Source: Torpedo marmorata
Lineage: Eukaryota
Assembly: GCA_977017645.1 (NCBI GenBank)
Contig: OZ360241.1
Coordinates: forward strand, 56,172,001 to 56,236,000
DNA length: 64,000 bases
Direction: 5' to 3'
Part shown: positions 3,646-60,928 of the stretch, piece after piece
How positions within the stretch are numbered: position 1 is the stretch's first letter
Layout of the letters: each line of letters starts with the position of its first letter
Position numbers and translations under genes: made by a program
The notes under the pieces: model-generated
The model's database searches: none
What the model was told of the DNA's origin: nothing
The model's input: the letters and a program-made list of their open reading frames with translations, nothing else

Positions 3646-3678
<33 letters not shown>

Positions 3679-6600
3679 GGTATATATATATATATATATA
3701 TATATACAGGTTATATTTAATATAGTTGTGGGGTCTGGCCTGGAAGAAAACTGAATTTTTAATCTATTATTTCACATTCAGCACTTATTGAGTCTTAATG
3801 TCTTGTCAGTTAGACATTGGAAAGGTCGAGGGAGAACCATTGTTGGGTTGTGCTTAGGGCATCAGTTGGCCTTAATCCGGCCCTGCTGGGATATGATTGT
3901 CGAAATGAACACTGTTTGTGTCGTGATCTTAGAACATTCTGTGTTACCAGAATTGATAAGAAAATTGTTAGACCAGATTGATAAACAAATTTGGTCCTAT
4001 TGTTACCCAAAATTCCCCAAAATGCTCTGTTTTTTAAAAAAAAAAAGGGTACTGAACAATAATCAATATCAGGAATTCTGTATTTACTTTTTGTTTCCAC
4101 TCTCACCCCTAAGATATTAATGACAATTTTAGTAGCCTAAATTCTATCCTGATTAAGGATAATTAATTCAGTACAACTAGAGAATGGAATATGAAATCAA
4201 GTCTCTTGGATTGATTGAGACTGAACACTGAAAAGGAATTGTAGATTGTTTTTGATGTGGGATGGGATGTATGTTGACAGAATCTTCATTTGGGAAGGGA
4301 AGAAGGTAAACAAGCAGAATGCCTATGAATCAGGAAACAAGGGTAAACAAAGGTGTACTGGGGATTGGGTGGACAACAAAGATTTGAGGTTGAAGGACTG
4401 ATAGGCAAAGAAGAGGAAGATGCAGGTTAAATTACATTAAAAAAAAAAAAATTATTTACAGAATGGTAAAAGCCGATTCTGGCCATTTAAACTCGTGCCT
4501 CCCAATTACACCCAAATTAACCTACAGCCACATATGTTTTGGAGGGTGGGAAGAAACCGGAGCACCCAGGGAAAACCCATGCAGACACGGGGAGAATGTA
4601 CAAACTCCTTACAGACAGCGCCAGATTCAAACCCAGGTCGCTGCCGCTGTAATAGCTGAATACTAACCATGCTGCCCAGGTGTGGGGGTACTTTCATTGT
4701 GGGGGACAGCAATAGGATGAGGAAAGAAACATTGCAGCAGTGCAGTTCTATTCGTCCGTGTGATGATGGGTGACCTTAGCACAATGTGAACCAAATACCC
4801 CTGTGAAGCACATCGTGGTAAGTGCTCAGTTGGATTTGATGCAAAAAGAACCAAAAATGGCCATTACTTTCTATCACTGAGATAAAGAATAATTTTTCTA
4901 TTGAATGATGCTGAAAAAATTAAGTTATTGAATTTTCAATCAAATAAATGCATCTGAAGTTGTGGAGTGCCAAGGGCCAATGACTAATAAAACTAGAACA
5001 GTTAATATATATCAATGATCTAGATGATGGGGTGGTAAACTGGATTAGTAAATATGCAGATGATACTAAGATAGGTGGAATAGTGGATAATGAAGAAGGT
5101 TTTCAAGGATTGCAGAGGGATTTGGGCTGCTTAGAAAGGTGAGCTGAAAAATGGCAGATGGAGTTTAATGCTGATAAGTGTGAGGTGCTTCATTTTGGTA
5201 AGAAGAATCAGAACAGGACATATGTAGTAAATGGGAGAGCATTGATGAATACAGAAGAGCAGAAAGATTTAGGAATAACGGTGCATCGTTCCCTGAAGGT
5301 GGAAACTCATGTGAATAGGGTGGTGAAGAAGGCTTTTAGTATGCTGGCCTTTATCAATCATTGCATAGAATATAGGAGTTGGGAAGTGATGTTGAGATTA
5401 TATAAGGCTTTGGTGCGGCCTAATTTAGAGTTCTGTGTGCAGTTCTGGTCGCCAAATTATAGGAAGGATATCAACAAAGTGGAGAGAGTGCAGAGAAGGT
5501 TTACCAGAATGTTACCTGGGTTTAAGAATCTAGAGTACAAGGAGAGATTGAGCATATTAGGTCTTTATTCTTTGGAGCGTAGAAGGTTGAGAGGGGATTT
5601 GATAGAGGTATTTAAAATTATGAAAGGGATAGACAGAGTGGATGTGGATAGACTATTTCCATTAAGAGTAGGAGAGATTGAAACAAGAGGACATGAGCTA
5701 AGAGTTAAGGGGCAGAGGTTTAGAGGTAACATGAGGGGGAACTTCTTTACTCAGAGAGTGGTAGCGGTGTGGAATGAGCTTCCGGGAGAAGTAGTGGCGG
5801 CAGAGTCAATTTTATTATTTAAGAAAAAGTTGGACAAGTATATGGATGAGAAGGAAGTGGAGGGTTATGGGCAGGGTGCAGGTAGGTTGGACTAGATAGG
5901 AATGTTTGGTTTGGTGCGGACTAGAAGGGCCTAATGGCCTGTTTCCGTGCTGTAATTGTTATATGGTTATATAATATCACTGAAGAGAAAATACTTGGGA
6001 ATTGAAGATTACCAAATCCTCATATGGATCCCCAGGGTTCGAAAAGAGGTGACTGAGGAAATAGTAAAGGATGAGCAAACATTTTCCAAAATTCATCAGG
6101 TTCTATAATAATTCCTTTAATATTTTGAAAATTTAAGAGAAAGGGAGATAATTTGCAAAAAAAAAAGGATTTAACGAGGATTAAGGGGAACGATTGAATA
6201 TGGTATATCTGGATTTTGAAAAGGCTTTTAGTAAGCTACTAAAATAATATTACTGCATAAAATGTCTCACATATTGATGTAATATATTAACATGGATAGC
6301 AGTTAAAGGGAAAAAATAGAGAAGGAATAACTGGGTCATTTTCAGGCTGGCAAGCTGTGATTAATGAAGAGCCATAGGGCTCAACTAATCACAATATATT
6401 GTCATGACACAGCTGAAAAGACAGTGTAACTTAAAAGTTGGATGATACAAAGTTAGATGGAAAATGAGATGTGAGAAAATACAGAGACTGCAAAAGAATA
6501 CAGAGTGAGTAAACGAGGAAGAGATAAATGGAGGAATAGAACCCTATTTAAAAATAAATAAAACTAGCAATTATACAGTGGAATTGAGCATGTAGAACAA

Positions 6601-9600
6601 ATAATTAGAATAGCGAATAGCATAAGCCTTTATTGCAAGGGAGTTAAAGTATAAGAGAAAGAAACTCTGAATGCAACTTTTTGGGGATTTGCTGTGGTGA
6701 ATCAGACTGGAAGCCCTGGTTGGTGACTTAAATTTTCCTTCCAATAAAAATGAGTACAATTACAATGTCCCACTTGTTAGATCAGTTAAACAGCACCAAC
6801 CAGGAATTATGACTGCTTTCCAACTTTTTGTTCTTTTTTCAGCTGTCCAGCATTTGCAGTATTTTATAATTTGTTACTTTGCTCTTCTTGTCTCTTAATC
6901 ATTTATTTTATTGCAGCATTATTTTTACTTTGCAAATGCCAATTTACTTTGTCAGTGTTGACTTTTTCATCTTTCAGCAAGGAACCGGTCAGACCAAACG
7001 TGCCTGGAGAACATGTTGCAGTGTGTTTGTGCTGGTTGTTCTCTTTTGTTGGGGGGTGGGGAAAGAGTGTGACTTGAGTGGAGAGAAAAAAAATAACTAT
7101 TTTGCATTTATCTCACTGAATCAATAAAGTTCAGAATTATCTAATTTCATCGTTATATTAACAATGAGATAAATGATTGGTGTTTTAAAATTGAATAAAG
7201 TCTGTCAGCAATTAATAATAGGGATAATATAGAGAAAATTGTGTTCATCAGGAATTGTCCTATGATAAAGCTATAATGTAACACTTGATTGTTTAGGGGA
7301 AAACAGGACATTTCTGCAGTTTGTGCCTTCAGAATGTCAAAAATTCAGGAGGTGTTCAATGAAGGAAAATTCAAGTCACCTATAACAGTGGAACAATCTC
7401 GCGTCAAGTGGATGATGTACAGTGGAACAATTCCTGTCCCTCGGCCAGGTGCTGTAAGTATTAAAACTTTCCTTGAATGGAAATACATCTTTATAGTAAT
7501 TTAAGAGCTGGAGTATTTTTCCATGCTTTTCCACATTATACTGGATGTTTATTTTTTCATTCTACAAGGAATAATTTTGAATTCATCTGCAAGGCGATTT
7601 GAATGAGTTCAGGTATTGAGTTATTGCACTGCTGAATACTTGGGATGCTTTCCCAGGAATGAAGGCATGAATGGAATCAAACACCAAAAGGGGCCATTAT
7701 ATCTTTATACCAGATTCCAGCATCTGCATTCTTTTATCTCCATTTGGTATGTGCACTTCATAGGCCAGGGTATTGAGTGCAAGAGTTGGGATGTCATGTT
7801 ACAGCTGCACAAAATATTGGTTTGATGGTATTTGGAGTATTATGTATAGTTCTGGACACCACACTACAGGAAGAATATGATAGTAGTAGAGAGGGTGCAG
7901 AGAGAGATTCACCAGGATGTTTTCTGCAATGGAGAGCTTAGATAAGTTTTTTTTTTCACACTGGAATGCAGAAGTTGAGAGATGTGATCTTTATAGAGGT
8001 TTGTAAAATTTCGAGGAGCATAGATAGATGGTTGGAGTCTTTTTCAAAGGGCAGTGATGTTTAGAACTCGAGGGCACAGGTCCAAGATGAAAGGAGAAGA
8101 AAGTTAAAGGAGATCTGAGTGGTAACTTTTGCCTCACAAAGGTGGTGTTTATCTGAAACAGGCTGCCAGTGCAGGTAGTAGAAGCATGCATTTTCAACAT
8201 TTAAAATGCATTTGGACAGGTGCTTAGATAAGAAAGGTATGGAATAATGAGGACCTAATGCAGACAAATTGAATTTGACATCATGGTCAGCATGGACAAA
8301 GTGGACAGAGTGTGTCTGTGCTTATAATTTTATGATTCTATGGTAACAAGCTGAACTGAGAGTGGAGATGGCAATTTTCATCATATCCAATAGGCAGTGA
8401 TGAGCCAGATGGATGATAGGATCTAGTCAAACTACAACATGTGGAGCCGGTGCTGCCTGCATCCAGCATTGGATACACTAACAGTGCTGGCCATAATGAA
8501 GCCCAGAGTCCTGCATCTGAGCATTGATTGACTGCACCACTCACCAGCCTGCCGAATAACAGCCCTCACAGGCAACTCTCCATACCCATCCTAGGGCAGT
8601 TCATTACTAGGGGGAGAGCCAGATCCCCATTACCATGTTCCTGGCACAACAATGTGCAGCAACAAAAAGGAAGAGGTTTGTTCCGGGTTTATAACACAGA
8701 AGTGCACAACCTGAGAGGATGCCTTTTTTTAAAAAGAAGTACAAAGGGATATATGCCAATAAGTGTTTGGACTGGAGGACCAAGAGTGTTGCATCGAATC
8801 CGTGCTCTGTTGGGAAATATTAAGCAGGGTCTTGATTCACTGTGATATAAATGGTTATAAATTTGGGTTGATCATGAGCACTGACCTGAAAGTTCACATT
8901 CAGATCCATTGAAGTCACTGAACGTCATGTGGGAGTTCAACCTGTGACTGATTATCTGGCACTTTTTTAACACAAATTACCAAAGACTAATATGTATCCT
9001 ATAAACTTTTTTTTCTTCTCATTTTCTATTTGAGCAGATGAACTGATCCATGGCAAGTACAACTTCACAAAAGATTGACTCAACCAGCCAATCCTCATTT
9101 ACAACTTTGAGTAAACGTTCATTGCATACATACCAATCCAGGATCTTTTTTCAAATGTGTTTCTGTGCAATGCATTCCAGCATACCAGTGATTAGTTGTC
9201 AGAACTGTAGCCCTGGTGCTTTACTACTGTGTCAAATGTGATAGTTTATTTGATTTCTCATATCATTAATTCAGCAGAAATCAACCATCTCAGACAGATC
9301 ACAAAAACTGGAATCTTTTTATAAAGTTCTGAAATAATAACTTGTCTTACATCCCAAATAACAAAAAGAGGTTTCTATGTTCTGTGTTGATTATCTAGAG
9401 TAATTTTCTGTCCAGCTGCATTTTGGCAATTTGTGCTATTAAATCAAACCTGAGCATTTAAGCCACAAAATTGAATATGTAAAATAAAACAAATGTATTT
9501 TGATCATTAATCATTTTAGCAAACTTCACTAAAATGTCTAAAATATGAAGAATATCAGTGAAGTAGCTTGAGCATGAAATGTCATATACACAGGTACAAT

Positions 9601-21567: not shown

Positions 21568-22268
21568 GAAGTAAAACACAAAAGTCTGCAGACACCGTAG
21601 TTGATGTAAAAGCACAATGCTGGAGAATCTCAGCAGGTCAAACAGTGTACTTTATATAGCAAAGATAAAGATACATAACCAACGTTTGGGCTTGAGCCCT
21701 TCATCAAGGTATGGTAAAATGTTGGCAGGTGCCCGAACAAAATGGTAAGGGGAGGAGCACGGTCTCAAAGGCAGGAGGTAATAGGTGGATAAGGGAGGGA
21801 GGGCACGGCAGGAAGCAGGGGGAGGAGGGATGGCTCTGTGAATAAAGAGGGAAGGGGTGGAGAGCTAAGGAAAAGAAGACAAGGGGAAAAGGGAGGAAGA
21901 ATGGAGAGTAGGTTAGCAGAAACCGGAGAAGTCGATGTTAATGCCATCCGGTTGGAGAGTGCCCAGGTGGAAAATCAAGTGTTGTTCCTCCAATTTACGG
22001 GTGGTTTTGGTGGGATAGTAAAAGAGGCCATGGACAGAAATGTCAGCGCGGAATTGAAATGGTTGGTCACTGGGAGATCCCTGTCACTGATGCAGACAGA
22101 GCGAAGGTGCTCAGCGAAGCGATCTCCCAGTCTGCGCCCAGTCTCTCCGATGTCGAGAAGGCCACAAAGGGAGCACCGGATGCAGTAGATCACTCCCGCA
22201 GATACACAAGTGAAGTGTTGCCTTCACTTGAAAGGACTGTTTGGGGCCCTGAATTGCGGTGAGGTTTT
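21568..22268 (-). mobile_element. Penelope-like element 3' fragment (GIY-YIG endonuclease plus pLTR with hammerhead-like motif)
   Basis: [31 protein letters not shown]; 14-bp TSD TCTCTTGTGCTCAA (21554-21567 / 22269-22282). Confidence 0.88.
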
Positions 22269-31100: not shown

Positions 31101-34100
31101 TCTCAATATCTATCAATGTCTCTTTGAAATGTGAAATTGACCCCTATTTTATTGGAGTTGCCAAAACCACTTGTGAAGGGCTTGGGTCTTTATTTTTTAT
31201 CCACTTCTCTGATAGGAAAAAATAGTTCTGAACACATTGTCAAATCTGGCGCTCATTTTAAAAACCTCTTGTTCACAATTCTAAATACCGTAATTAAAAT
31301 AAGTGGAAGTATAATCTGTGCAAACTCTTTTAGTCCCCATATTATGCCTGTGAACATAAGCTTCTTGACATGTGAAATGTAGTATGTTGAATGGGCAGCG
31401 CTGTTGGCCTGAAAGTTTGGTATTCTCTATTAAAAAAATGTTTAATTGGCTAGATTTACTGTGGCATGAAGTAATGCAATATAATGACAACCACGTCAGT
31501 ATAATAGATTGGTTGGTAGACATATTTCTGGAAGTCCAGAGCTGATATCGGGTTAATCCTCATCTGTCAAGTTCAGCATGTGCCGTTAACCAAGCTTTTA
31601 CTGTAACATAGTTCACTAGTACTTTTAAAACTTCTTGTGAATATTGCTTTACTAGTTTATTCCATTCAGTGTATGTAATCAATTGCAATCTGAAATCCCT
31701 TTTACTTAGCTCTGGTTGTGTATAAAAGGAACACTCAATTTTAGAGTAATTGACGTCTGCTGACAGCTAGTTATACTCTGCAATTATATCGATTTTCCTG
31801 AAAGAACTTTCCACATTTTTGATGAGGTGATTTTGTGTGTTTCAGGAAATAAGTTATTTGTCTGTTTTTTGTGAGCTGATTTCTCAGTTTGAGCTGCTGG
31901 GTCCTGCACAGTTATAATAGAATTAAGAAGCAAAACACAAACTATTGGAGGAACTGATCTAAAATGTTGACCATCCCTCTTCCTCAACAGATGCACCCTG
32001 ATCCATTGACTTCCTCCAGCAGTTTAGTTTTTCCTCCAGATTTCAGCATCCGTAGTCTCTTATGCTTCAACAGTAGAATTAAACTACAGTACAACCCCTG
32101 GTGTCCGGAATTCAAGCAACCGGCAGCCTCAAGCAATGGGCAAAAAAAAAAATCAAGGAAAATAAATTGTAAAAATTAAAATAAATAAGAATAAAATAAT
32201 AGGTAAAAAATACGCAAGTTTAAGTTGTAAGGGTAAAAGTTCTCTGAAGTAACACGTAAACCTTTGGTGAAGATGGGAACAAATATTCAGCCAGCGGGGT
32301 GCCTTGGTTGTGCCTTGCTCGTAGCAGCTGTTCAAAGTTGTGAAACAGCAATGCTGTTGCCCAGGATGAAGAGCTGGTTGATGCTGCCCGCCGTTGGGGT
32401 GACTCTCTTAATGTGTCTCCTTATCCCTACTTAGTAAGAGTCGCCCCAGTTAGAGGCTTTATCTGTAAACTTTGGGGGGGGGGGGGGTTAATTATCTATA
32501 ATGTTATTGTTCGTCTTTCGGGCGGCTCCGTGGAGGGGGAGAAACCTGCAGATGCAGCGAGGGTTAAATGTTTTCAAAGAATGTGACTGAAAATAAAGTA
32601 CAGTAAAATGCTTTAAGGTTTATATATTCATGCAAGTGAAGTTTGTTCAGTGTAAGTATAGTATTTTTATCTTTTGTCTTTTAAACTTTATTCTTAATGC
32701 AGGTGTATTAGTTAGGCATTGTAAGAGTTAGTCTCAAGTAACCAGAAAATACACTTATGCGGCATCTACTAATCTCTGTAGGTGCTGGATACCAGGAGTT
32801 TTACTGTACAATTTAAACTCACCCATGCTTCAGTTCAGGCTTCTTTCACATTGATTTAGTGCAGCTTTAATGAAGTGAGAGTATCTTCAGCTGATTAAAT
32901 GTCAAAACTTGATGAAAGATGAAATTGGACAGTTCGCTTCCAATTCCTTAGGGATATAAACTTCCAGCATAAAACTATCAGTACAGACTATCAGTGCAGA
33001 CAAATCCTGTATTATGGAGGGAGGGGGTTGTAATCTTCGGAAATGATCTGTATTTTCTGTAATGCAAGGCTTTGTCATCCACAAATTTTACTCTGTCGTA
33101 TATGACTGTGGAGTGATACGAGAATTTTCTAAGGTCAAATTTCTTGTTGCCCAAGCAGCTGTGAAAAAATATATATAATTGAAGAAGAAAGGGGCAGCAC
33201 AGTTAGCGTAGCGGTTAGTGCCATGCTGATACAGCGCCAGCGACACGGGTTTGAATCTAGCGTTGTCTGTAAGGAGTTTGTACGTTCTCCCTGTGTCTGC
33301 ATGGGTTTCCTCCGGGTGCTCTGGTTTCCTCCCACCATTCAAAACGTACGTACGGGGGTTGTAGGTCAATTGGTGTAATTGGACGGCACGGGCTTGGGCG
33401 GCCGAAAGGGCCTGTTACCGAGCTGTATGTTTAAATTTAATTTAAAGAATATTGTGTTAGATCTAACTGGGAATGTTTCATTTTGCTTTTCAATGAGAAC
33501 CTAAGCAAAACCACTGAATTTGAATTCTAACTGGTCAGAAACAAACTTACTATTTTTATCTTTCTATTTAGCGAAAGTATGGAGTTGTATTGGATGATAT
33601 CAAACCAGGAGCACCCCCTGAGTTACAGGCTGTAAAAATGTTTGCTGAATATTTGTCCAGTGAGGATCAAAGGTAAGAGGTCATAGTTTAATCCATATTT
33701 ATTTCTTGGTCATAGAGTGGGAATCTCTTCCTAATCTGTGCTGAATAAACCCATCTCACCTTTGCAATGTTATGGTTGACCTTGAAGCAATCAGCCTCAA
33801 TAAGCAGCGAAACACGAAAATCTGCAGACGGTGTGATTGTAGTAAAAAGACAGAAATGCTGGAGGAACTCAGCAGGTCTCACAGCATCCATAGGAGGTAA
33901 AGATATTATTGCGACTATCTTCCTTTATAATCGCCTGGAGAGACTTGAATGTCGTTGTTTATGACTCGTTCAAACAAATAGTCCGTACTAAAGTTGAGTT
34001 TATTAAACCTTATATATCAGTAACTACATTATTACAACTTTGTTATACGGTACTAAAACTATGATAAAACAATTAAAAGATGATTAAAACGGTCAATAAA

Positions 34101-37100
34101 AGTTTTCAGACCGCTTCAAGTCTTTCCATAAATATGAAGGGACAGAGAAATCCAAAACTGACCGTTATCTTAAACATGCAGAGAGAGAGACCTTGGCTAA
34201 GAACACGTTTCTATGGAGACACTCAAAGAATGTAAACATCTTCACAGACTGCTTGCAAAATCTGCTTGCAACTTGCATTTTAACCCTTACAGATATATTA
34301 CTGACATTTCGGGGCTGAGCCCTTCCTCAAGATATGAGTAAAAAAACAGAAAGTGCCTGTATTAAAAGGCTGGGGAAAAGGGAAGAATGGGAGGGGGAGG
34401 AGTATAGACCTACAGACGAAAGGTGTTTACTGGATAGAAGAGAGGAATGATGAGAATTGGGGGAGAGGGGCTTTGTTTTTGGCTCTGTGAAAGGATACAG
34501 AGGGAAAAGGGAAGAGAGAGAGAGACACACACACACACAGAGGACAGAGCCAGAGGAAAGGAGACGTACAGAAAGATTGGGAGGGGGCAGGAGCTAACGG
34601 AAACTAGAGTTGGTGTTAATGCAAAGCAGTTGGAGGGCCCCCAGACGGAATATGAAGTTTTTTCGGAATATGAAGTGTTAATCCTCCAATTTGCGGGTGG
34701 TCTCAGTCTGGCAGTACATGAGGCCATGGACAGGCATGTCAGCAAGGGAATGGGGTGAGGAATTGAAATGGGTGACCACTGGGAAATCCACACGATTGCT
34801 GCGGACAGAGCCGAGGTGGTCAATGAAGTGATCTCCCAGTCTGCGTCCAGTCTCTGCGATGTAGAGGATACCACAACGGGAGCACTGGATGCAGTAGATG
34901 ACCCCTGAAGATTATTCACTTGGAAGGACTGTTTGGTGCGCGAATGGTGGTGAAGGTGGTGGTGTGGGTGCAAGTGGAGAACCTAATAAGCATCCTAGCT
35001 TTCCACATCTAATATCAAGTACAATATGCGGATATTGGTGTAAATGTGATCAGGTTTGGTTGTGCTCCAAATGCTCATTGAGAGGCTACAGATGCTTTGG
35101 AACTCCTTACCTTCTGTTAATTTGCCCAAGTAGCTGTGATTCAAACAAGGGCAATATTGTCAACTGCTATTTTCACACATTGACTTTTCAACTAAATGGA
35201 ATTGCTTAAAGCCAGACCAGTATAAGTGCATAATATTTCTTGAGTAAAGTAAAGCAGTTGATTTTTTTTTACAACAATGCAGAAATTTTGTGACCAATAT
35301 TACTGGCTTTATTAATAGATAATTAACAGAATTTAAGATCTCCAGTTCCTGCAGCAATGTTTGATCTTGTATCTCTGGATAATTATTCTTAACCTGTAAT
35401 AGATCCAGTGTACAATATACGCGATGCTAATTGTGTGCTTGCAAATTGTCAGGTTATGTGTCTGTAGACATTACATCCAGACCCAATTGCATCATTATCT
35501 AATTTTTTTTAAAGAACATATCACTGGATAACAATCTGGAATGGGATTTATGTCTTTCTATCCTCTAGATCAGCCATTCTCAACCTTTTTTTTGGCTATG
35601 CCCCCCCCACCCAGGACTCTGCTCAAAGTTTATGGGTCCCCTTCCCTGTGAAGCAGTCAAGTTTTGGTTTCTTCCGTACTTCTCTCCTACCGACTACATA
35701 AAAAATATTTATGTTTCGCGAGGTGAAATGAAAACAAGGCTTTTACTTAAATGTGCTGTGGCCCCTGTTGAGAATGGCTGCTCTAGATAATGATCTCGAG
35801 CAGTGGTTTTCAAACTTTTTCTTTCCACTCACATACCACCTTAAGTAATCCCTATGCCATAGGTGCTCTGTGATTAGTAAGGGATTACTTAAGGTGGTAT
35901 GTGAGTGGGAAGGGAAGGTTGAGAACCACTGCTCTAGACCTAATTGTTACTGAAATATTTTGCTTGAGAAAAATTGTCATTGGCCCATTTCCTTTGGAGT
36001 TATGAAACCGTGCACATAACGAGTCAATTAGGTACGATTAAAACAGTGGTTTTTAAACTTTTTATTTCCACTCACATACCACCTTAAGTAATCCTTTACT
36101 AATCACAGAGCACCTATAGCATAGGGATTACTTAAGGTGGTATGTGAGTGGAAAGAAAAAGTTTGAAAACCACTGGTGTGCCCTGGCTGTTGTGATCTAA
36201 TTTGGGATGGAGAATTAATTAATACATTAGTCACTTCATAAAAATCAGAGTTGGTCTTTAACACCAAAGTAATTGTGTAAGATAAAATGAGAATTCTTCC
36301 ACACATCCTTTTCAGAGATACCACAGTTTCGAAGTTGGAGAAGAAGATGGCAAAGAATGTTGATGTGAGCAACACAACATTCTTGTTGATGGCAGCCTCG
36401 ATCTATTTACATGAACAAAATACTGATGCGGCCCTGCGTACATTGCACCAAGGAGAAAGTCTGGAATGGTGAGTAGGAATGTGCGGATTCTGCCGGCTAC
36501 ATTTCTTTCATGTATCTATATTGTAAACAGTGACTTATCTCAAAGTTCTGTCAGCAGACATGAAGCAGAAATGAGACCATTTTACTCAAATTGCAACTTG
36601 TAAATTTGAGTAAAACGCTCTCGTATCCATCTGTCTTGTTGTTATAGTGCCTCAGTATCAGTGCTCAGATATTCCAGTGTCATGCTTTAGTCAGGAAGAA
36701 GATTGTATGCACAAGAAATGGCGTGTTGCAATTTTTCCCAAATTGGACGCCCGAAATAGCAGTAGTGATAGAACATTCCCAGAATTTTGTATGTGTGGAT
36801 ATTTTCTCAGATGGCATTGGAACTGCTACATGCTGAAAAATATCTGTTTTCTTTGGATTCTTGGAGTATATTTGCACCCTTGTATAGAATGCCTGTTTTT
36901 CATAATGCAGAATAATTTTGATCTCTTTTGTCTCTACAGCATGGCCATGTCAATACAGACCTTTTTGAAACTCGACAGGCTGGATTTGGCTCGGTAAATA
37001 CATTGTTAAAATAACAATTCAAAAGAAAATATGTTACATCTGCACAACGGAGTCCAAACCTTTGCGGAGATAAATCATTGATTGAGGGTGAACCATCACC

Positions 37101-40100
37101 TTTTTCAAACATTTCCCTGTAACCCACCGCAATGACTTAAAATGTTAATGTTAAAGATTTGCGAGACATTTTCTAATTGTCCTATATTTACCAATCTAAT
37201 TTGCTCAATTACTTCTAAGAACGGTTTGTTTCCTATAAGTAGGAATGCTGCTTAAAATCTTTTCTTTCCAGTGACTATCAGTGCATTTCCAAAATTGCCA
37301 ATGATGTCCGTATTCAAATGATAACTCAAGAACAAGATGCAAGATAATCAATTTCCTCACCTATTTTGCTTGCCCTGATTCATCCAACCACCTCAATGTG
37401 GTGAGCAACTAAATCTACGCTGCAAAACATTAATTAAACACCATTATAATTTTAAATAAATTCTGTTTTAACCAAATCCCAGTTATGAAATTGAGATACA
37501 GTAAAACCCCTGGTATCCGGCACCTACAGGGATTGGTAGATGCCGGATATGCAAATTTTCTAATTGCTTGAGACTCACTCTTACAATGCCTAACTAATAC
37601 ACCATCAATAAGAATAAACAGTTTAAAAGACAAAAGACAGTGCAAAATGGAAAATAATTTGGAAAAAAATCAGTTTATTGTTGTCCTTAATTATGTAAAG
37701 TTTACTTTAATCAGGTAACTCCCGTAACTTACAAAATTTAAATTCGAAACCCGGTTGCTGGCGCTGTAACAGCGTTGCGCTGACCACTACGCTAACCATG
37801 CCGCCATCATAGTTAACCCCCCCCTCCCTCAAGTTTACAGATAAAGCCTTACTAATCTACTTAATAATATACTAATAAAGATAAAGACTTACTAAGAAGG
37901 AATAAGGAGACACTTTAAAAGAGTCACCCCAACGGCAAGCAGCATCAACTGGCTCTTCATCCTGGGCAAAGCCATTTTATTGAAACATAACTTTATTCAA
38001 ACAGCTGCTACGAGCAAAGCACGACCAAGGCACTCCGCTGGCTGAATATTTGCTCCCATCTTCACCAAAGCTTTATGTGTTACTTCAGAGAACATTTACT
38101 GTTACAATGTAAAACTTTTACTTACATATTTATTTATTCTTATTTATTTAAATTTTTTATTTATTTTCCTTTTTTTTTGCCGGTTGCTCGAATTCCGGAT
38201 AACAGGGGTTTTACCGTACTACCTTAATAGTGCAAATGCAGAATTAACCTTACTTTAAGTGGTTATTACCCTCATTTGAAGCAGCTGCCAATTAATTGGA
38301 TAATAATTTGGCTCCCTCTTGTGGCAAAGTTCAATAGCAAAAAACACAAAAGCTGGAGAACTCAGCAGGTCAAACAGTGTCTTTTATGTAGCAAAGGTAG
38401 AAATACATAACCGACGTTTCAGGCTTGAGCCCTTCATCAAAGTATGAGAAAATGCCGGCAGCCGGCATTTTCTCATACTTTGATGAAGGGCTCAAGCCTG
38501 AAACGTCGGTTATGTATTTCTACCTTTGCTACATAAAAGACACTGTTTGACCTGCTGAGTTCTCCAGCTTTTGTGTTTTTTACTTCAACCACGGTGTCTA
38601 CAGATTTTCATGTTTACTTTTAAAGTTCAATAGCAGTCTGGCCATTTTTCAGAAAAGTAGTACCTGTAATTGTGCCAACATGAAGCTTGAACAACAGACG
38701 CATAGATTAGTGAATGTAGTACAGATACTCCCCGACTTACGACCATCCGTACATACGACCGAAAAAAATACTGTATAAATTTTTTTTTAAAAAGAAAAAA
38801 TATATGTAATTATAAAAATTACGCTTGGTCGTACGTCCACCAGTGCTAACGGCTGCATGCGTACAATAGTGACCGTCAGACGATATCCCGGCATTGTGTA
38901 CATCACAGCATCTTTCTCAGGATAAAAGAATGCTGTACAGGTACAGCGGGCTGTTGGGAGAGCGCGGGGCAGTGGGATCAGTGTGGGGACTTATAGCGGG
39001 CTGTCGGGTGAGCGCAGGGCAGTGGGATCAGTGTGGGGACTGATAGCAGGCTGTCGGGAGAGCGCGGGGCAGTGGGATCAGTGTGGGGACTGATAGCGTG
39101 GGGACTACATGCCATGCTAACATATTTCCGACTTACGTCCATTTCGAGATACGACCGGTCGGTCAGAATGGAACTCGGACGTATGTCGGGGAGTATCTGT
39201 ACTTTATTTTGATGAACAATTTTAGTTTAATTTTGTAGGCTTCTTCTCTCCCTTATCCTTTTAACTCTAGGCCCTTTTATAGTGCAAAAAAAGCAATTGT
39301 AAAGACAGAATATTTCTGTCTTTAAATCGCTTCACTTACCTCCATAAAAGGTCCGATGGCGGATTGGCTAGTTGAACTCCGATCTGCCTAGGGGGGTATA
39401 CACAGAGGTGGAGAGAATCTCTCCACCTCCTCCATTAAATGAAAGCCACTGAAAGCGGCTACAAAGGGGAGGGCTGATGACGTTGCGATGATGCCGTCAT
39501 CCCGCGACCCAGGAGCGCGATTTCTAAATAACCTGTAGAGCTAATTACGCTGTGCAGGAGATCTGTCTGAGTCCTAAGGCTGCCTGCACAGATCTCCACC
39601 AGCGCTCTTACCTGCTCTTCGGTTGCCATTTCGGGTATAGGCTGCTTTCCCTTCTCGGCGCATAAGTTTGGCGTCATGGTGGTGGGCGGCGCTACTGCAC
39701 CACTTGCCCCGCCTCCCTCAGATCGAGAAGCCGGCTCCCGACGCAGCTCAGCATAAAGACAACAGAGGAAACGCCATATAGGTCATCACCATAAAAAGTA
39801 ATTTCACTTTTTTTTTCCTTGAGCTGGCTCTAATGCAGGGTTGCAACCATAAAAAGGGTTATAGAGTAGCTGGTGATGAAAATATGTAGCTTCTACATCA
39901 GTCCCAGTTTCCTGAATTTGCATGAATTAGTTTTACTTGAGAATAAACCTAGTAAGTGGGTCTGTTTTATTTTCTGTGATCAGTTTTGAATATTCTCTGA
40001 TGGTCACCTGGAATGTGTGAACAGGGAAAAGGCTACTTGGCTGACTGAACTTCATCCCTGTTCAAATATCTTGTCCAGTGGGATCATATGGGTTATGAAT

Positions 40101-43100
40101 ATTGTTTGAAGAGTCTATAATGTTTAAAAAATAATTTTAACTTGATATTTTCATCTTGGAACACTATCCTTTAAAATGACATTTTAGATCCTAATTACAA
40201 TTCTGCCAACTTTCTTTACAGAACTGAGTTAAGCTAATCTTTTATTTAATTAGTAGCATTCTTGCCCTCATTTATTCGAGCCAAATTCTGCAGATAGAAG
40301 CAAAAACTACAAGAGCAATAAACTGCAAGAGCAATATACAAACTTGCTGGTGAAACTTAGAAGGGCACGCAACATCGATGGGAAGTAAAGGGTAACCAAT
40401 GTTCAGCCTGTTTTTGCTCATACCTTGACAAAGGTCTCAGGCCTGAAACATTGGTTACCCTTTACTTTCTCTTGATGCTGCATGACCTGCTGAGTTTCAA
40501 CAGCACATTTGTGCATTGTATTTCCCCAGCAAGAGGTTTGATCCAAACTAGACTTGGTTCTTTGCCGAATAAACACTGATCAATGTTGTGGAACCCTTGT
40601 AGAAGAAATTATTTGCACTCTTTTGGTGGTGCTAGTACATTGCATTTGGAACTTTTTAAGGTATCTTTCATCACTTTTCCAAATCTATTCAATTTAGAAA
40701 AGAATTGAAGAAGATGCATGACCAGGATGAAGATGCCACCCTGACACAGTTGTCAACAGCCTGGGTGAACCTGGCTATGGTTAGTGAGGATCCATATTAT
40801 GACATTAGGGCGGCACGGTTAGCATATCACTGTTACAATGCCAGTGACCGGGGTTCAAATCCATTTCTGTCTGTAATGAGTTTGTACGTTCTCCCCGTGT
40901 CTGCCTGGGTTTCCTCCGGTAGCTCCAGTTTCCTCCTACGTTCCGAAGACGTACAGGATTAGTACGTATTTGGTCACATGGGTGTATTTGGGCTGTGTGG
41001 GCTCATGGGCCAGAAAAGCCTGTTACCGTGCTGTATCTCTGAATTTTAAAAAAAAAAAGTAAATTAACAACCTGGGTAAAGTTGCTGGTGAAGGGTGTGT
41101 TGATAGATGGTTTGCGAAGGAAAGAGAAAGATGAAGCAAAATTTCAACTTGGCTGGAATCTACTGGATTTGTATTAAGGATTGATCTCTGGGAATGTCCC
41201 CAACATTCCAAATCTTGATATCCCAGTTACTACCATATTTCTTCTTGTTCCATCAGCATCTTCTATTCTATCCATTCCTATTGTCCAGTAATGTTGCCTT
41301 TTATTTATTGCCTCTTGTATGCTTTAATCATCCTAATTCCTGAACTACTTTATCATTACTCCATTACCTCCTACCTTCCTGCTGGAGCTTCAGGAGTGAG
41401 GTGCTCTTCTTTGCACCTGTACCTCATTTGGCATTCACTGAATTCTGCATTGCTTTATTTAGAGCTGTCCCTGAGCAAGCAAAAATCTCCTTCCTCTTCT
41501 CAACTAATCTTTCCAACGACCTTGTCCAATCAGTGTGATTTTCACCAATCTTTTGACATAATTATCCTCTTGGAATTTGCCAGCAAATCAAACGTCATAT
41601 TCCTCTTTTTGTCCTGGGCAAAAAAAGTGCAGAAAAACTGGTGCCAAGTTTAGCACAAGGACCCTGAATGGCCTATACATGCTCCCACTTGTCTTCCTGC
41701 ATCTTTTGCATTCATGCTACTATTTCTGAATGTTTCCAAGAAGAATCCTGCTTTTAATTTTCTGGTTTACTTTAGTTAGCTCCGCTTTCACTCCCTCACA
41801 GTCACACGGTCTTTTCTCCTTCAAGATAAATTCATTAATATTATGATCACTGTTGCCAAGGGGTATATTCACAATGAAGTCCTGAATTAATCCTATCTCA
41901 TTGTACCATGCCAGGTATCGTATAACCTGCTCTCAGGTTAGGGCTCCAGGAACATGCTCAATATATCCTCATCTTGTTGATTAAAATTCTCCATGTTATT
42001 ATTTTATCTTTCCAGTGAGTGCCCATAATTTTGTCCTTTGTTCTGTTGTTACTGTTGGGGGAGAGGGGGAATCTAATGGGGAATAATGAGGGGGGCATAA
42101 AGAGCTTCTAATTTTAGCATTTAATTATTATTGTTGTAGTCTGTAGCATTATCTACTGATTCATTCTTACTTCCCATTCCATCTGTCATTTCCATGTTAA
42201 ACCCTTTCGCTCCAGTTTCATCTCCACACAGGTTTACTGCGCCATAAGAGATTGGAGCAGAATTAGGCCATTCAGTCAGCGCCGCCATTTGAATCATGAC
42301 TGATATATTCTTCCTTTCAACCCAATTTTTCTGCCTTGTCGCCATAACCTTTGAGTCCCTTACTAATCAAGAACCTAGCAACCGCTTTAAATATACCAAT
42401 GACTTTGCCTCCATATCTGTGCGTGGCAATGAATTCCACAGATTCACCACCCTCTGCCTGAAGAAATGTCTTCTCTGTTCTCAAGGGATGTCCTTTTATT
42501 CTGAAGCAGTTATCTCTGGTCCTAGACTCTCCTGTTGCTGGAAACATCTCCACCACTCTATCCACCCCTTTCAATATTCAGTATGTTTCAATGAGATCTG
42601 CTCCCCCACCCCTCCTTTCTAAACTCTGGCGAGTACAGGCCCAGAGCCATCAAATGGTCCTCGTGCATTACGGGATCATTCTCATAAACCTTTAGACTCA
42701 CTCCAAACCCAGCACATCCTTCCTTAGGTATGGGATCCAAATCTGCTCCAAATGTGGTCTGTCCAATACCTTATAAAACCTCAGCATTACATCTTTGCTT
42801 TTATATTCTAGTCCCTGTTGTGGATACACGCAGGCGCGGTACACAAGCCGGTGTATGACGTCATAACACATATATATTGTGTGGCGCGGGAAACCATTTT
42901 TAGATTAGTAATAAAGAATGAATGAAGCACCACGTCTCCGTGTGCTAGTGTACTTCTAAATCTAGAATACACAACAGATTGGTGACGAGGATCGAAATGA
43001 ACTTCCTCTATGCTCCGAACATCAGAGAGAAGATTTAAAGAGGAAACGCAAGGCTACCACAGCAGTGAGCTCCACAGGCTCAAACACAGAGAACAAAGGA

Positions 43101-58100: not shown

Positions 58101-60928
58101 GTAATATTGGTGTGATTGGAAGATTCACTGGCAAACGGAACAAGAAATAGGCAAAAATGGTAGGCAAGATGCAACGAGTGGTATAAACAGGAATTGTTGC
58201 AATAACTTGGATGAAAGAACATAAGTTGCTGAGTTTGTTGATGGCACAAAGGTAGGTAGTAAGGAAAGTTATGAAGAGGACATAAAAAGACTACAAAGGC
58301 AAGTAGATTAAACAATTGACCAACGATCTGGCAAATGGAGAGTAATGTGGGAAAATTATGAAATTGTCCAATTTGTTGGGAAAAAGAAAGAAAATTACAT
58401 GGTGAGTGCTTGAGAAGTGTGAGATGTGGAGAGATCTGAATGTCCTTGTGGCTGCTCTGCAAAAATTAAGAGTTCAGGAACAGAAAGTAATTCGGAGAAC
58501 TAACAATATATTGATTGTTGCTCAGGAAATTGAATAAAATATAATGAGGTTAGACTTTAGTTATATTGAGAACGCATCTGGAGTATTGTGTATGATATTT
58601 ATTTCCTTATTTAAGAAAGGATATTAATGTGTTGGAAGCAGTTGAGAGAAATTTTACTCGACTCTTACCAGGAATGGGCAAGGTGTCTGCGGAGGACAGG
58701 CTAGCTTATTTCTGCTGGAGTTTAAGTGAGAGTGGACATGCTTGAAAAGTACAAGATCTAGAGGGTTCTTTACAGGGTGGATGTGGGGAGGATGTTTCCT
58801 CTCGTGCAAGGGTCTAGAACCAGGAGTTACTGTTTAAAAATATGAGCTTGCCCATTTCAGGTGAATACGGTGATTTTATTTTCTCTGATGGTTACAAGTC
58901 TTTGGTGCTTTCTTCCTCAAAAGATAGTTGAAGCAGTCTTTGAACATTTTTAAGACAGAGATAAATATTTGATGAAAATATCAAAGGTGGTGAAAGCTGA
59001 CTGCCAGTAGATGGGAATGCAGAGTTACAGTTACAGTCAGATGAGTCATGATCTAATTAAATGGTGAAGCAGTCACAAAGAATCATGCAGATTTAGAAAC
59101 ACGTAAGAGACTGCAGATGCTGGAATTTGGAGAAAATTAAAGGTGTAACCATGGGCACTCGCATGGGTATGCCTGGCTTTTTGTTCGTTACCCCACCAGC
59201 CTCCTTATTCAGCACATCATTCTTCGTCGATCCACCAGCTGCAACTAGATCCCACCACCAGCCATGTGTACTCCTCCCCACTCCATTTTTGCCTTCTGTG
59301 ACTCCCTTGTTCCTCCCACTTGCATGTACCAGGAGCTTATTCACAGAATATTGATCATGCGTACAATGTTCTCTTTGGCACAGCTGTGATTAATCGGTGG
59401 AATAGGGTTGATTTAACATGACACTTAAAAGTAACACAGGGTGAAACAAGAAAGACTGCAGGCATTGTGATTGTAGTAAATGCACAAAAGTGCTGGTACA
59501 GCAGTGTCCAAACGATGCAAAGATATATAACTAACGTTACCTTGACGAAAGGCTCAGGCCCGAAATGTTGGTTATTTATCTGTGATTTTTTTCTGCTTTA
59601 GCTTAACCTTCTTGTATGTGAAATAAGCTGGTTTCAAGCTTCAATCTTACAACAGGCTGGAGATGTACGCCCTTGTATTGAATGTTAAGCAGATCCATTT
59701 TGTATGGGTGCTGCTGCAGCTTGATTTCTTTTGGCCCCACTGTTTCATTCTTCAGCCTATATGAGTCGTATGTTTTTTGTGCTTTGCAGCTACACTCCCT
59801 TGCATTGCAAGTCGTGCTTGTGATCCACTTTGCACGTTAAATGATTATTGCATAATTTCAATTCCCATAGGACAGCAATCATCCAGAAACTCTCATCAAT
59901 CTGATTGTACTCTCTCAGCACTTGGGCAAGGCTCCTGAGGTAAGGCTTCTGAAAAATCTGATTAGTTGGCTTTCACTAGATCTCTCTGTGTGTCAGTGAG
60001 AAAATCATTTATGGATTGTGGAAATGGCTCTGACACGAACTGACCCATATTGAAATCCCCAGCTCCTCTGAACAAAATCACATCAGCCATGAGTAAACTA
60101 TGGAGCACTGAAATTGGTCTTTGCATCCCTGATAGAGAGAGATCATGTTGGAGTTGGCTGTGGGAAGGGTTGCCAAATTGTCCTGAATATATTTGTACCA
60201 TGTGAACCAGATTCTGTATTCAGAGTCCCTTCCTCTTCCACAGTCGCTTATCCCAATCACTACTATAAGCTACCACAGCTGTCAAATGCACTTGCTCCAC
60301 CTTAATCATATTAAGCAACATGGTGTTTTAGAACAATTGAACCAGTTGTTCACACATTCCACCGAGTTTTTTTTGCCTATTTGTCAGCTAGTTTCAGTGA
60401 AACATTAGAACAGAATTTTCAGTGTTGTGATCGTCTGAGCCTTCAAGGCTCTAGGCATGAGTATTGGCATATGTAATTCTCTCCACAGGACAACACCGAT
60501 GTGAAGTAAAATGTGTCTCATGCTTACCTTGTGATGGAACCAGACAGCTTTAGTCACAGCTGCTGACTCCATTAAGGAGTGTGTAATTGTTGATGCTGGG
60601 TACATGGCCAGAATTGACTTTGGTAAATAGCCTGTGCAGGTACACCAAATGAACCTGTGCTGCAATAATAAATTTGTCACCTGCTGGTACAAGTTCTCAT
60701 TTTGAATTTCTCTGCTGTTTTTAACTGCTCTTATGGGTTTCTTGTGCAATTGTCTGCGTTGCTACGATAAATGCATTCAACATTGAGATTTCACATGCAA
60801 TCTATCACTGTTGATGTATCTTCGTGCTAAAATGCGCTGTTTTTCACAAACAGGTTAGTAACCGCTACCTCTCTCAGCTGAAAGATGGACATAGAGGGCA
60901 CCCTTTTGTTAAAGAATATATGGCCAAG
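28086..60928 (+). CDS. COPE: Coatomer subunit epsilon, 3'-partial; join(28086..28190,29227..29289,33572..33672,36316..36468,36940..36993,40698..40779,50135..50290,59871..59939,60854..60928)
   Basis: Nine phase-compatible GT-AG exons spell a continuous epsilon-COP sequence from [21 protein letters not shown] to [10 protein letters not shown]; final exon not found in the window. Confidence 0.97.
29227..29289 (+). CDS. COPE: COPE exon 2
   Basis: tccag|[21 protein letters not shown]|gtatgg. Confidence 0.95.
29350..30570 (+). mobile_element. Rex1/Babar-type LINE, 5'-truncated, with a Penelope RT fragment inserted
   Basis: [49 protein letters not shown]; tail TGACAATAAA..(TTCTGA)n. Confidence 0.9.
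29987..30160 (-). mobile_element. Internal Penelope-like RT fragment
   Basis: [44 protein letters not shown]; flanked by 11-bp direct repeat AGGTGACATAG. Confidence 0.85.
30657..30935 (+). mobile_element. V-SINE (HE1-like)
   Basis: tRNA-like head (partly duplicated), V-domain, tail GGGCCGAAAGGGCCTGTTACTGTGCTGTAT. Confidence 0.85.
32087..32806 (+). mobile_element. Tigger-like non-autonomous DNA transposon, copy 1
   Basis: TIRs CAGTACAACCCCTGGTGTCCGG / CTGGATACCAGGAGTTTTACTG; TA flanks; inverted homologue at 37499..38216. Confidence 0.87.
33191..33445 (+). mobile_element. V-SINE (HE1-like)
   Basis: Clear V-domain GGAGTTTGTACGTTCTCCCTGTGTCTGCATGGGTTTCCTCCGGGTGCTCTGGTTTCCTCCCAC. Confidence 0.88.
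33572..33672 (+). CDS. COPE: COPE exon 3
   Basis: tttag|[34 protein letters not shown]|gtaaga. Confidence 0.95.
33807..34984 (-). mobile_element. Penelope-like element 3' fragment (GIY-YIG plus pLTR), split by a solo LTR
   Basis: Homologous to 21568..22268 ([24 protein letters not shown]); AATAAGCA direct repeat at both ends. Confidence 0.8.
33907..34291 (-). mobile_element. Solo LTR of a third family
   Basis: Minus strand starts TGTAAGGG and contains AATAAA; 5-bp TSD GATAT (33902-33906 / 34292-34296); removing it restores the Penelope pLTR. Confidence 0.7.
35571..35780. mobile_element. hAT (Charlie-like) MITE
   Basis: TIRs CAGCCATTCTCAAC / GTTGAGAATGGCTG; 8-bp TSD CTCTAGAT. Confidence 0.92.
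35801..36175. mobile_element. Composite hAT-type element made of two palindromic modules
   Basis: Modules 35801..35931 and 36044..36175, each CAGTGGTT...AACCACTG and inverted relative to each other. Confidence 0.8.
36316..36468 (+). CDS. COPE: COPE exon 4
   Basis: ttcag|[11 protein letters not shown]...[12 protein letters not shown]...[13 protein letters not shown]|gtgagt. Confidence 0.95.
36940..36993 (+). CDS. COPE: COPE exon 5
   Basis: tacag|[18 protein letters not shown]|gtaaat. Confidence 0.95.
37499..38216 (-). mobile_element. Tigger-like non-autonomous DNA transposon, copy 2 (contains a V-SINE fragment at ~37730-37805)
   Basis: TIRs CAGTAAAACCCCTGGTATCCGG / CCGGATAACAGGGGTTTTACCG; TA flanks; reverse complement of copy 1. 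Confidence 0.87.
38340..38621. mobile_element. Penelope pLTR-derived fold-back element (perfect palindrome)
   Basis: Arms 38339..38459 and 38461..38581 are exact reverse complements; 14-bp TSD AAAGTTCAATAGCA (38326-38339 / 38622-38635). Confidence 0.9.
38474..38514 (+). ncRNA. Minimal type-I hammerhead-ribozyme-like motif (U3 variant)
   Basis: CAUACU-UUGAUGA-A-GGGC(UCAA)GCCU-GAAA-CG-UC^GGUUAUG: stem I, core, stem II, palindromic ACGU stem III, GUC triplet; mirror copy on the - strand at 38406..38446. Confidence 0.65.
38722..39199. mobile_element. Tigger-like MITE with an internal 50-bp tandem repeat
   Basis: TIRs CAGATACTCCCCGACTTACG / CGTATGTCGGGGAGTATCTG; TA flanks. Confidence 0.9.
38945..39094. 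repeat. 3 x 50-bp G-rich tandem repeat
   Basis: Units start at 38945, 38995 and 39045 (AGCGGGCTGTCGGGAGAGCGCGGGGCAGTGGGATCAGTGTGGGGACTGAT). Confidence 0.92.
39270..39860. mobile_element. Possible non-autonomous DNA transposon (Harbinger-like ends)
   Basis: Imperfect TIR GGCCCTTTTATAGTGCAA / TTGCAACCATAAAAAGGGTT around a CpG-rich core. Confidence 0.45.
40330..40520. mobile_element. Older Penelope pLTR-derived fold-back element
   Basis: Imperfect inverted arms (AAGTAAAGGGTAACCAATGTT / AACATTGGTTACCCTTTACTT) with a decayed hammerhead-like motif. Confidence 0.7.
40698..40779 (+). CDS. COPE: COPE exon 6
   Basis: tttag|[27 protein letters not shown]|gttagt. Confidence 0.95.
40808..41050 (+). mobile_element. 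V-SINE (HE1-like)
   Basis: Head, V-domain and tail, about 30 bp downstream of COPE exon 6. Confidence 0.82.
43126..47295 (+). pseudogene. Disrupted gag-pol of the Gypsy element
   Basis: Consecutive ORF fragments in shifting frames, a stop at ~45624, no protease D(T/S)G motif found, SINE insertion. Confidence 0.9.
44248..44444 (-). mobile_element. 5S rRNA-derived SINE, 5'-truncated copy inside Gypsy pol
   Basis: Near-identical to 17609..17830 apart from an internal deletion; TGT duplicated on both flanks; removal restores [21 protein letters not shown]. Confidence 0.9.
48195..48442 (+). mobile_element. 3' part of an LTR distantly related to the Gmr1-like LTRs
   Basis: ACTGTAATGGT..(CA)n..AATAAA..GCTGCTGGT..GTAACA layout mirrors the family LTR end. 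Confidence 0.55.
49458..49760. mobile_element. Harbinger-like MITE with reiterated CTTTCACACTGG motifs
   Basis: Right end CCAGTGTGAAAGGGGCTT; four internal TTCACA(C/T)T(G) motifs; degenerate left TIR. Confidence 0.55.
50135..50290 (+). CDS. COPE: COPE exon 7
   Basis: cgcag|[19 protein letters not shown]...LLLNGQAAC...[11 protein letters not shown]|gtagga. Confidence 0.96.
51571..51638. repeat. 68-nt near-perfect hairpin
   Basis: 33-bp arms with 2 differences around a 2-nt spacer. Confidence 0.85.
52130..57965 (+). mobile_element. Gmr1-like Gypsy LTR retrotransposon (PR-IN-RT-RH order), RT-deleted
   Basis: LTRs 52130..52988 and 57114..57965; 4-bp TSD AGGT; tRNA-Pro-like PBS TGGGGGCTCG..CGGGATTTGAA from 52992; PPT GGGTGGGAGG before the 3' LTR; integrase precedes RNase H. 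Confidence 0.96.
53121..56981 (+). pseudogene. Disrupted gag(SCAN-like)-PR-IN-(deltaRT)-RNaseH polyprotein
   Basis: Frameshift ~53290, TAG at 53765, +1 insertion in the RDTG protease motif at ~54462; ORF 54486..56981 has the HHCC finger, rve core, GPY motif, RT thumb ([14 protein letters not shown]) and RNase H ([27 protein letters not shown]) but no YxDD. Confidence 0.92.
57970..59075 (+). mobile_element. Old degenerate CR1 fragment (likely host of the Gmr1-like insertion)
   Basis: Remnants WIEDWL, WQME.NVGK, HLEYCV, LEAV.R.FTR and a CR1 tail. Confidence 0.7.
59095..59585. mobile_element. Penelope-like fragments (pLTR pieces, RT motif GVTMGTRMG, decayed hammerhead-like motif at 59538-59574)
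   Basis: Similarity to the other pLTR copies; CCTTGACGAAAGGCTCAGGCCCGAAATGTTGG. Confidence 0.65.
59871..59939 (+). CDS. COPE: COPE exon 8
   Basis: catag|[23 protein letters not shown]|gtaagg. Confidence 0.96.
60854..60928 (+). CDS. COPE: COPE exon 9
   Basis: aacag|[25 protein letters not shown]|gtaagt. Confidence 0.96.

Follow-up and report, generated by a model that had tools for sequence, protein, structure and literature searches.

Insertions of Penelope-like elements (PLEs) show a described shape that combines an inverted 5′-truncated copy, a one-sided tail of 30–40 nt, and a TSD (PMC3846280, PMC8557442, PMC8969392; all articles are cited here for their accessible parts); tails of this length are given in PMC3846280, PMC8557442, and PMC11167929. 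In the Pen2/Pen2a elements of Adineta, the inverted copy lies head to head with the direct one, and a palindrome is found at the junction (PMC3846280). As to the origin of the inverted pLTRs and of the one-sided tail, self-priming is proposed in PMC3846280, and PMC11167929 leaves the later steps unvalidated. According to the latter work, the protein of the Anolis PLE Poseidon_Ac (PAc) cuts and extends both strands in vitro, two internal start sites bound the tail, and priming works in vitro without hammerhead cleavage. Metazoan PLEs carry minimal type I hammerheads in their pLTRs; minimal motifs taken singly showed no cleavage in vitro, and dimers cleaved weakly (PMC4209133). The Anolis motif required a protein for cleavage (PMC11167929).

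The insertion analysed here, located in an intron of the COPE gene of Torpedo marmorata, shares with Pen2/Pen2a the head-to-head inverted 5′-truncated copy, the one-sided tail (40 nt, in agreement with the published lengths), the TSD, and the junction palindrome. Unlike the Adineta elements as described in PMC3846280, it is a miniature without an ORF, its TSD is about 14 bp instead of 8–10 bp, and at least 840 such junctions are present in one genome. Most probably, the insert consists of two 5′-truncated 3′ ends of a young Neptune-type PLE, placed head to head in a 14-bp TSD, and it likely arose in a single event in which both nicked strands primed on uncleaved RNA. The COPE locus itself is a common insertion scar of little weight; the value lies at the family level, in the rules of the arm ends and in the U3•G8 core of the hammerhead-like motif.

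Architecture of the Insertion

The window, that is, the whole 64-kb stretch of DNA analysed, contains the following features of the locus.

36994–40697, plus strand: COPE intron 5 (GT...AG; coding exon 5 at 36940–36993, exon 6 from 40698)
38326–38339, no strand: left TSD, 14 bp, AAAGTTCAATAGCA
38339–38460, minus strand: short arm, an inverted 5′-truncated copy of the element 3′ end (q-1 to q121) without the tail
38413–38440, minus strand: second minimal hammerhead-like core, judged from the sequence
38455–38466, no strand: head-to-head junction with the GCCGGC hexamer, which is self-complementary and recurs as a joining site in the family
38461–38581, plus strand: paired part of the long arm, a direct 5′-truncated copy of the element 3′ end (pLTR segment, q1–121)
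38474–38514, plus strand: minimal type I hammerhead-like motif, judged from its sequence
38582–38621, plus strand: one-sided 40-nt tail of element sequence, which only the long arm has
38622–38635, no strand: right TSD, 14 bp

The initial annotation described two exact 121-bp arms around base 38460, bounded by a 14-bp TSD and each carrying the motif. The segments 38339–38459 and 38461–38581 are indeed exact reverse complements over 121 bp, centred on A38460, and no second exact palindrome with arms longer than 27 bp occurs in the 64-kb window. The motif is found in both arms, at 38480–38507 (plus strand) and 38440–38413 (minus strand). The TSD was also confirmed as a perfect 14-bp direct repeat (38326–38339 and 38622–38635), but it does not adjoin the right arm: an unpaired 40-nt tail (38582–38621) separates them, on this side only. 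The insert is 296 bp long. In the element coordinates used below, q1 is window position 38461 and q161 is 38621. The central A38460 is a templated base, since the left arm extends further 5′ into the element, by about two bases, than the right arm does.

The COPE gene lies on the plus strand, and the Pfam profile PF04733 matches four of its exons. Coding exons 2, 3, 5, 8, and 9 were placed by translation with short peptide motifs that we take to be those of COPE; intron numbers count coding exons. The exon matches and the translation agree with the annotated position in intron 5, where the insert is 1.3 kb away from the donor and 2.1 kb away from the acceptor.

In sequencing runs X2 and X6, which come from other organisms (~90–92% alike), one contig each covers 38206–38339 and ends at the TSD. 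Differences at 38664–38690 carry the same depths as the X2 and X6 contigs (27.3 and 8.8). Only 102 bases are left on that side, so the X6 contig must skip the 296-bp insert. From the matching depths, the X2 and X6 contigs appear to carry the empty site.

Two MITE-like repeats are located near the insert, at 37497–38218 and 38713–39208; their terminal inverted repeats measure 24 and 32 nt. In related sequencing runs, both occur at high copy number, and the repeat at 38713–39208 contains three 50-nt direct repeats. In addition, an imperfect hairpin in COPE intron 3 (~36030–36170) gives miRNA-shape matches in Rfam. The insert itself was rejected as a miRNA precursor, as the hairpin-driven matches are far under the cut-offs (MIR821, 149.5 vs. 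249); the Rfam miRNA and snoRNA matches are shape- or box-driven and under cut-off. A 27-bp exact hairpin lies inside a simple repeat at 3647–3707.

The Source Element

The right arm and the tail represent the 3′ end of a young repeat family of the 6.2-Gb genome. In the family sample (30 loci fetched, 40 scored, 349 candidates), 30 loci match q1–159/161 at 98.8–100%; their 3′ end is common, and the 5′ truncation varies. Long copies extend upstream into a frame encoding RT and a GIY-YIG-type domain. The copy at locus L031 contains a 1,277-codon open frame (3994–7824; 1,276 aa from the ATG), in which RVT_1 was detected with an E-value of 5e-8 together with the YIDD motif. The GIY-YIG-type domain follows RT at the C-terminus of the same ORF; its match (E-value 0.014) is under the Pfam curated cut-off, and the GLIY...YIG motif was recognized by eye. 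A Pfam search with the C-terminal 442 aa of the ORF gave no match at an E-value of 0.001, and the full ORF gave RVT_1. Between RT and GIY-YIG, there is a CX4CxxC linker (CARRRCNTC).

A partial tandem arrangement, as in a pLTR, can be noted in L031, where q100–161 precedes the ORF; in such a tandem copy the tail sequence sits 36 nt ahead of the ATG. Loci L020 and L027 continue from the pLTR into the ORF start. The Penelope origin and the inverted pLTR copy proposed in the initial annotation agree with these long copies, with the pLTR, and with the inverted 5′-truncated copy and its 40-nt one-sided tail. By the features described in the accessible parts of PMC8557442, the sequences identify the element as an endonuclease-bearing PLE of the Neptune or Nematis type. 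Its linker corresponds to the CX2–5CxxC linker located between RT and GIY-YIG in the Neptune clade; Nematis has this linker too, and the assignment to Neptune relies on one motif. Unlike the Neptune-clade PLEs described there, the element has a long ORF (1,276 aa) with an N-terminal repeat and a proline-rich region.

Locus L031 (3899–8158; G000:C1:308.527–308.532 Mb) contains a full-length copy, whose ORF has an N-terminal repeat of ~19 aa and a proline-rich stretch. From its sequence, it is a candidate active source element.

A non-LTR retrozyme was rejected as the source of the COPE insert, as the two copies at this locus are inverted and tandem units are missing. Tandem units were observed elsewhere. 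A 95-nt unit (q1–91 and four A) that holds the whole hammerhead motif forms 8, 3, and 1 junctions in three insertions on G000:C2, at 310.247 Mb (L100), 311.085 Mb (L153), and 312.70 Mb (L101). Their flanks are unrelated, they are less than 2.5 Mb apart, and the unit was found nowhere else in the genome by exact pattern. The arrangement is retrozyme-like and suggests a local source element with tandem motifs.

The Hammerhead-like Motif

The motif has the sequence UUGAUGA-A-GGGC/UCAA/GCCU-GAAA-CGUC. Stem I (38474–79/38508–14) has one bulge and a U•G closing pair; the core UUGAUGA (38480–86) is followed by an extra A, stem II (38488–99), GAAA, and the palindromic ACGU at stem III. The predicted cut is after C38507 (q47). 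The initial annotation spoke of a hammerhead-ribozyme-like motif and noted that PLEs carry minimal type I hammerheads with a palindromic stem III. The layout and the ACGU fit such hammerheads, and the 3–8 pair does not. Compared with the core CUGANGA...GAAA...UH with a C3–G8 or U3–A8 pair, the motif deviates in having U3 opposite G8, while the remaining core positions correspond. Stems I and II can be formed, positions 15.2–16.2 are palindromic, and pairing is kept in 84% of cells across 20 copies. The covariation score (0.141 vs. 0.129 in shuffled alignments, with 123 of 500 as high) gives the stems no clear support; it comes from a small sample of 20 copies, which are related, decayed, and partly misaligned at the edges. 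A search with hammerhead models had been suggested as a check; at E-values up to 10, no Rfam hammerhead model matched in the 5-kb region, in the arm taken by itself, or in the tandem array, and a motif without stem III may lie outside these models.

Like the PLE motifs of PMC4209133, the motif is located in the pLTR, has an extra base after A9 and palindromic positions 15.2–16.2, and lacks stem III as a monomer. Unlike them, it has U3•G8 instead of C3–G8 or U3–A8, its stem II is 4 bp (7–8 bp in the Schistosoma motif), and the COPE copy has G•U at 10.1–11.1, the closing pair of stem II, where most of its own family has G–C. The U3•G8 core is found in 98% of about 124,000 motif copies and in older relatives as well. 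The accessible literature mentions a natural U3 core with an insertion (PMC7151607) and reports U3–A8 (PMC3088659); no direct activity measurement for a U3•G8 core was found in it, and the figures or supplement of PMC4209133 might show such a variant.

The following fold figures are secondary-structure estimates that leave aside tertiary contacts and protein. In the best predicted fold of q14–54, the 5′ core is paired with the cleavage site (−9.9 kcal/mol vs. −5.8 kcal/mol for the hammerhead-type fold). Even in the prediction without the antisense arm, the probability of the hammerhead-type fold is ~0.0007, and that of a sequestered core is ~0.99. A double hammerhead is predicted at −8.5 kcal/mol, versus −19.8 kcal/mol for two misfolded monomers. 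In layout, the motif is like a minimal hammerhead; the 3–8 pair places it outside that class, and self-cleavage is putative. The motif would be carried along by the pLTR as a passenger, and little or no activity is predicted for it unless the protein of the element is present. The U3•G8 core may be regarded as a natural test of the need of PLEs for RNA cleavage.

At locus L161, a motif has a C3 core, and its stem I differs (GCATCC ... GGATGC); judging from its sequence, it probably belongs to another PLE family.

Abundance, Junctions, and 5′ Ends

The exact 25-nt motif pattern with U at position 3 has 121,851 copies in the genome, and the C3 version has 2,448. Head-to-head junctions just 5′ of the motif were found for the young subfamily in at least 840 places, and the reversed-pattern controls gave 0. 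Among the matches listed, 31 of 50 junctions have one of three lengths, counted by hand from the coordinates: 30 nt (11 junctions), 34 nt (8), and 52 nt (12). All three common lengths centre on self-complementary sequence, and the GCCGGC hexamer is the exact fusion point in 11 of the 50 junctions listed. Two of 15 other loci repeat the COPE junction: L099, and L103 with an additional base.

For 19 of the first 24 junction loci among the matches listed, the structure was compared. The TSD is estimated at 13–15 bp in 14 of these 19 loci, and in 11 of them the arms are identical over their overlap, so the perfect palindrome is the usual state of these stubs. The COPE insert is a real, young, and ordinary Penelope insertion stub of an already described shape. 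Hundreds of near-perfect 120-bp inverted repeats are a possible, putative source of intronic double-stranded RNA. Palindromic copies at a spacing of ~11.5 kb were also observed inside a large tandem repeat, at G000:C52 89.63–89.67 Mb, at C41 135.5 Mb, and on several small contigs.

The points where copies stop were studied in 30 loci chosen on q96–161 from 346 candidates, with the COPE locus left out; all are 100% identical to the query, and many overlap with the q1–161 family sample. Thirteen of 29 5′ ends fall in q-24 to +29 and three in q30–95. This clustering has a P-value of 1.5e-4 in a scan against a constant hazard, the 54-nt window having been chosen after looking. Only one of the 29 5′ ends is near the predicted cut (q47), and the idea of short copies beginning at the cleavage site found no support. 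The cluster could reflect the start of the transcript, stalling of the RT, or joining by microhomology, and does not fit the use of cleaved RNA. An Inr-like TCACTCC can be seen by eye at about q-21 to -15, in keeping with a possible transcription start.

Independent direct duplications ending at q54 and joined to a copy from q0 or q15 were noted in L030 (1444–1661) and L116 (1379–1566). The q54 position is the last base of stem I, and 5 of 30 5′ ends fall on q14–16, its first bases. This hints that the hammerhead fold may shape template jumps.

Arm Rules and the Mechanism of Insertion

One long and one short arm are present in all 34 other junction-selected loci (15/15 selected by junction region and 19/19 by junction pattern). 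The long arm ends at q148–161, and the other arm ends at q127 or earlier, in 17 of 19 loci at q117–127. In L110, L112, and L034, the short arms end at q88–93 instead, which may be a possible third, minor start site.

In 30 head-to-head pairs, 8 of 81 non-CpG polymorphic cells are discordant within a locus, compared with 34% between loci; over all positions, 0.9% differ between the arms of one locus and 2.1% between loci. Judging from these sequences, the two arms mostly come from one source or were converted later, with exceptions such as L037, and arm-to-arm gene conversion could also account for the concordance. Clearly discordant arms occur in L037 (7 differences in q-38 to -14), L176 (7), L167 (8), and L178 (13), and a single template is therefore not universal. 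At four loci, the tail-less arm reaches further 5′ than the tail arm, by 1,585 nt in L016, 1,023 nt in L024, 824 nt in L036, and 431 nt in L037, which leaves no way for one arm to have been copied from the other.

The long-plus-short rule, these four loci, and the 5′ ends located just before the motif favour coordinated two-ended priming on uncleaved RNA. Family membership, the long-plus-short rule, the TSD, and the copy numbers are observed directly, and the two-ended priming is deduced from the patterns of end points. The GIY-YIG endonuclease would nick both target strands ~14 nt apart. One 3′ end would prime at the distal start site (q149–161), yielding the tail, and the other at the proximal start site (q117–127). 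Both cDNAs would halt close to the hammerhead motif's 5′ border and would be joined via short self-complementary sequences such as GCCGGC, and repair would fill the remainder. This scheme resembles PAc (PMC11167929) in the two start sites bounding the tail, in the cutting and extension of both strands, and in the dispensable cleavage. Unlike PAc, the element belongs to a different clade, and its long ORF starts ~170 nt downstream of the core, whereas the PAc ATG is inside the hammerhead.

With hundreds of young stubs that follow a fixed long/short rule, the two-ended model can be assessed by counting. It is also reminiscent of L1 twin priming, in which, as Ostertag and Kazazian reportedly described in 2001, both target strands prime cDNA and an inversion arises inside the TSD. 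L1 inversions are not known to duplicate the 3′ end; here, one sequence is covered by both arms, and there is a fixed second start site. Tentatively, and with somewhat less than even confidence, we propose that head-to-head insertions record an obligatory asymmetric twin priming, with one distal and one proximal start, mostly on the same RNA, and with both cDNAs stopping at the 5′ border of the hammerhead. Given the prevalent U3•G8 core and the lack of a cluster of ends at the cut site, this very successful PLE lineage would largely have abandoned cleavage and retained the hammerhead for a structural or protein-binding role.

Alternative Explanations and the COPE Host

A fold-back origin, which comes near the self-priming interpretation by Arkhipova et al. 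2013 (PMC3846280), would have one cDNA self-prime at a self-complementary site and be copied back, the endonuclease resolving the second end at q117–127. The self-complementary centres of 31 of the 50 junctions listed are in line with this, as are the 11 of 19 loci with arms identical over the overlap, where both arms have the same 2–5 differences from the reference copy. At symmetric loci, including COPE, it would give the same sequence. However, it cannot yield the longer tail-less arms of L016, L024, L036, and L037 or the arms with different subfamily alleles in L037, and annealing at these palindromic sites would be expected of two converging cDNAs too; we regard it as unlikely. The palindrome might instead spread whole as a non-autonomous, MITE- or retrozyme-like unit, a view to which the identical 30-nt junction in 11 of the 50 junctions listed and the 95-nt tandem unit common to three insertions on one contig lend some colour. 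Such a unit is extremely improbable, as the junctions vary widely, the arms range from ~45 bp to more than 1.5 kb, solo copies have the same 3′ end, recurrence is expected from GCCGGC microhomology, and just two of 15 loci (L099 and, with one base more, L103) have the COPE junction. Perfect palindromes are a known class of assembly artefact, and the contigs of the sequencing runs show no piece across this one; no spanning read or contig was seen. An assembly fold-back can nevertheless be given almost no credence, because the 14-bp TSD and the one-sided tail make the structure asymmetric, the same architecture is present at hundreds of loci with different flanks, and, as indirect evidence, the flanks appear joined across a single TSD copy in contigs of other organisms.

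As to the host gene, the initial annotation suggested that masking of the ribozyme by its antisense arm could explain how an essential gene tolerates the insert, with the duplex as a potential ADAR/Dicer substrate; taken in full, this reading has the ribozyme active and the duplex exerting a regulatory effect. The geometric part of this suggestion holds: in COPE pre-mRNA the antisense arm is made first, and the predicted fold of the transcript 38301–38660 contains a very stable 121-bp duplex (−240.6 kcal/mol). Any head-to-head insertion, on whichever strand, shares this geometry, which is not peculiar to COPE. Retrozymes are reported, in the accessible part of bioRxiv 2026.07.22.740005, to be depleted from Xenopus introns, so intronic hammerheads may be selected against, which speaks for masking. 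The explanation itself found no support: the motif has a U3•G8 core, and misfolding is predicted for it even when no antisense arm is present; in vitro, isolated minimal motifs showed no cleavage (PMC4209133); copies do not have their 5′ ends concentrated at the cut site; and the insert looks lineage-specific. Moreover, two older sense-strand relatives without an antisense arm are present in the same gene, at 40408–40525 (intron 5) and 59538–59582 (intron 7), with cores that have now decayed. Since the motif is probably weak, the insert lies deep in the intron, and unmasked sense relatives exist in introns 5 and 7, masking is not needed for tolerance; with 121,851 motif copies and 840 like junctions genome-wide, the COPE copy needs no special explanation of this kind. 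We consider a masked ribozyme very improbable. Most likely, the insert sits in the intron as a neutral passenger, and nothing indicates a special role of the palindrome in COPE.

In total, five older pLTR relatives are present in the window, at 21574–21725, 33810–33903, and 34288–34342 on the minus strand and at 40408–40525 and 59538–59582 on the plus strand, and four of them sit within COPE introns. A search with window positions 34180–34400 returned mostly an unrelated repeat. Elsewhere in the genome, two abutting PF04733 matches (profile positions 195–290, with one stop) were found at G000:C2:1606929–1607208 on the minus strand; they likely represent a fragment of a processed COPE pseudogene.
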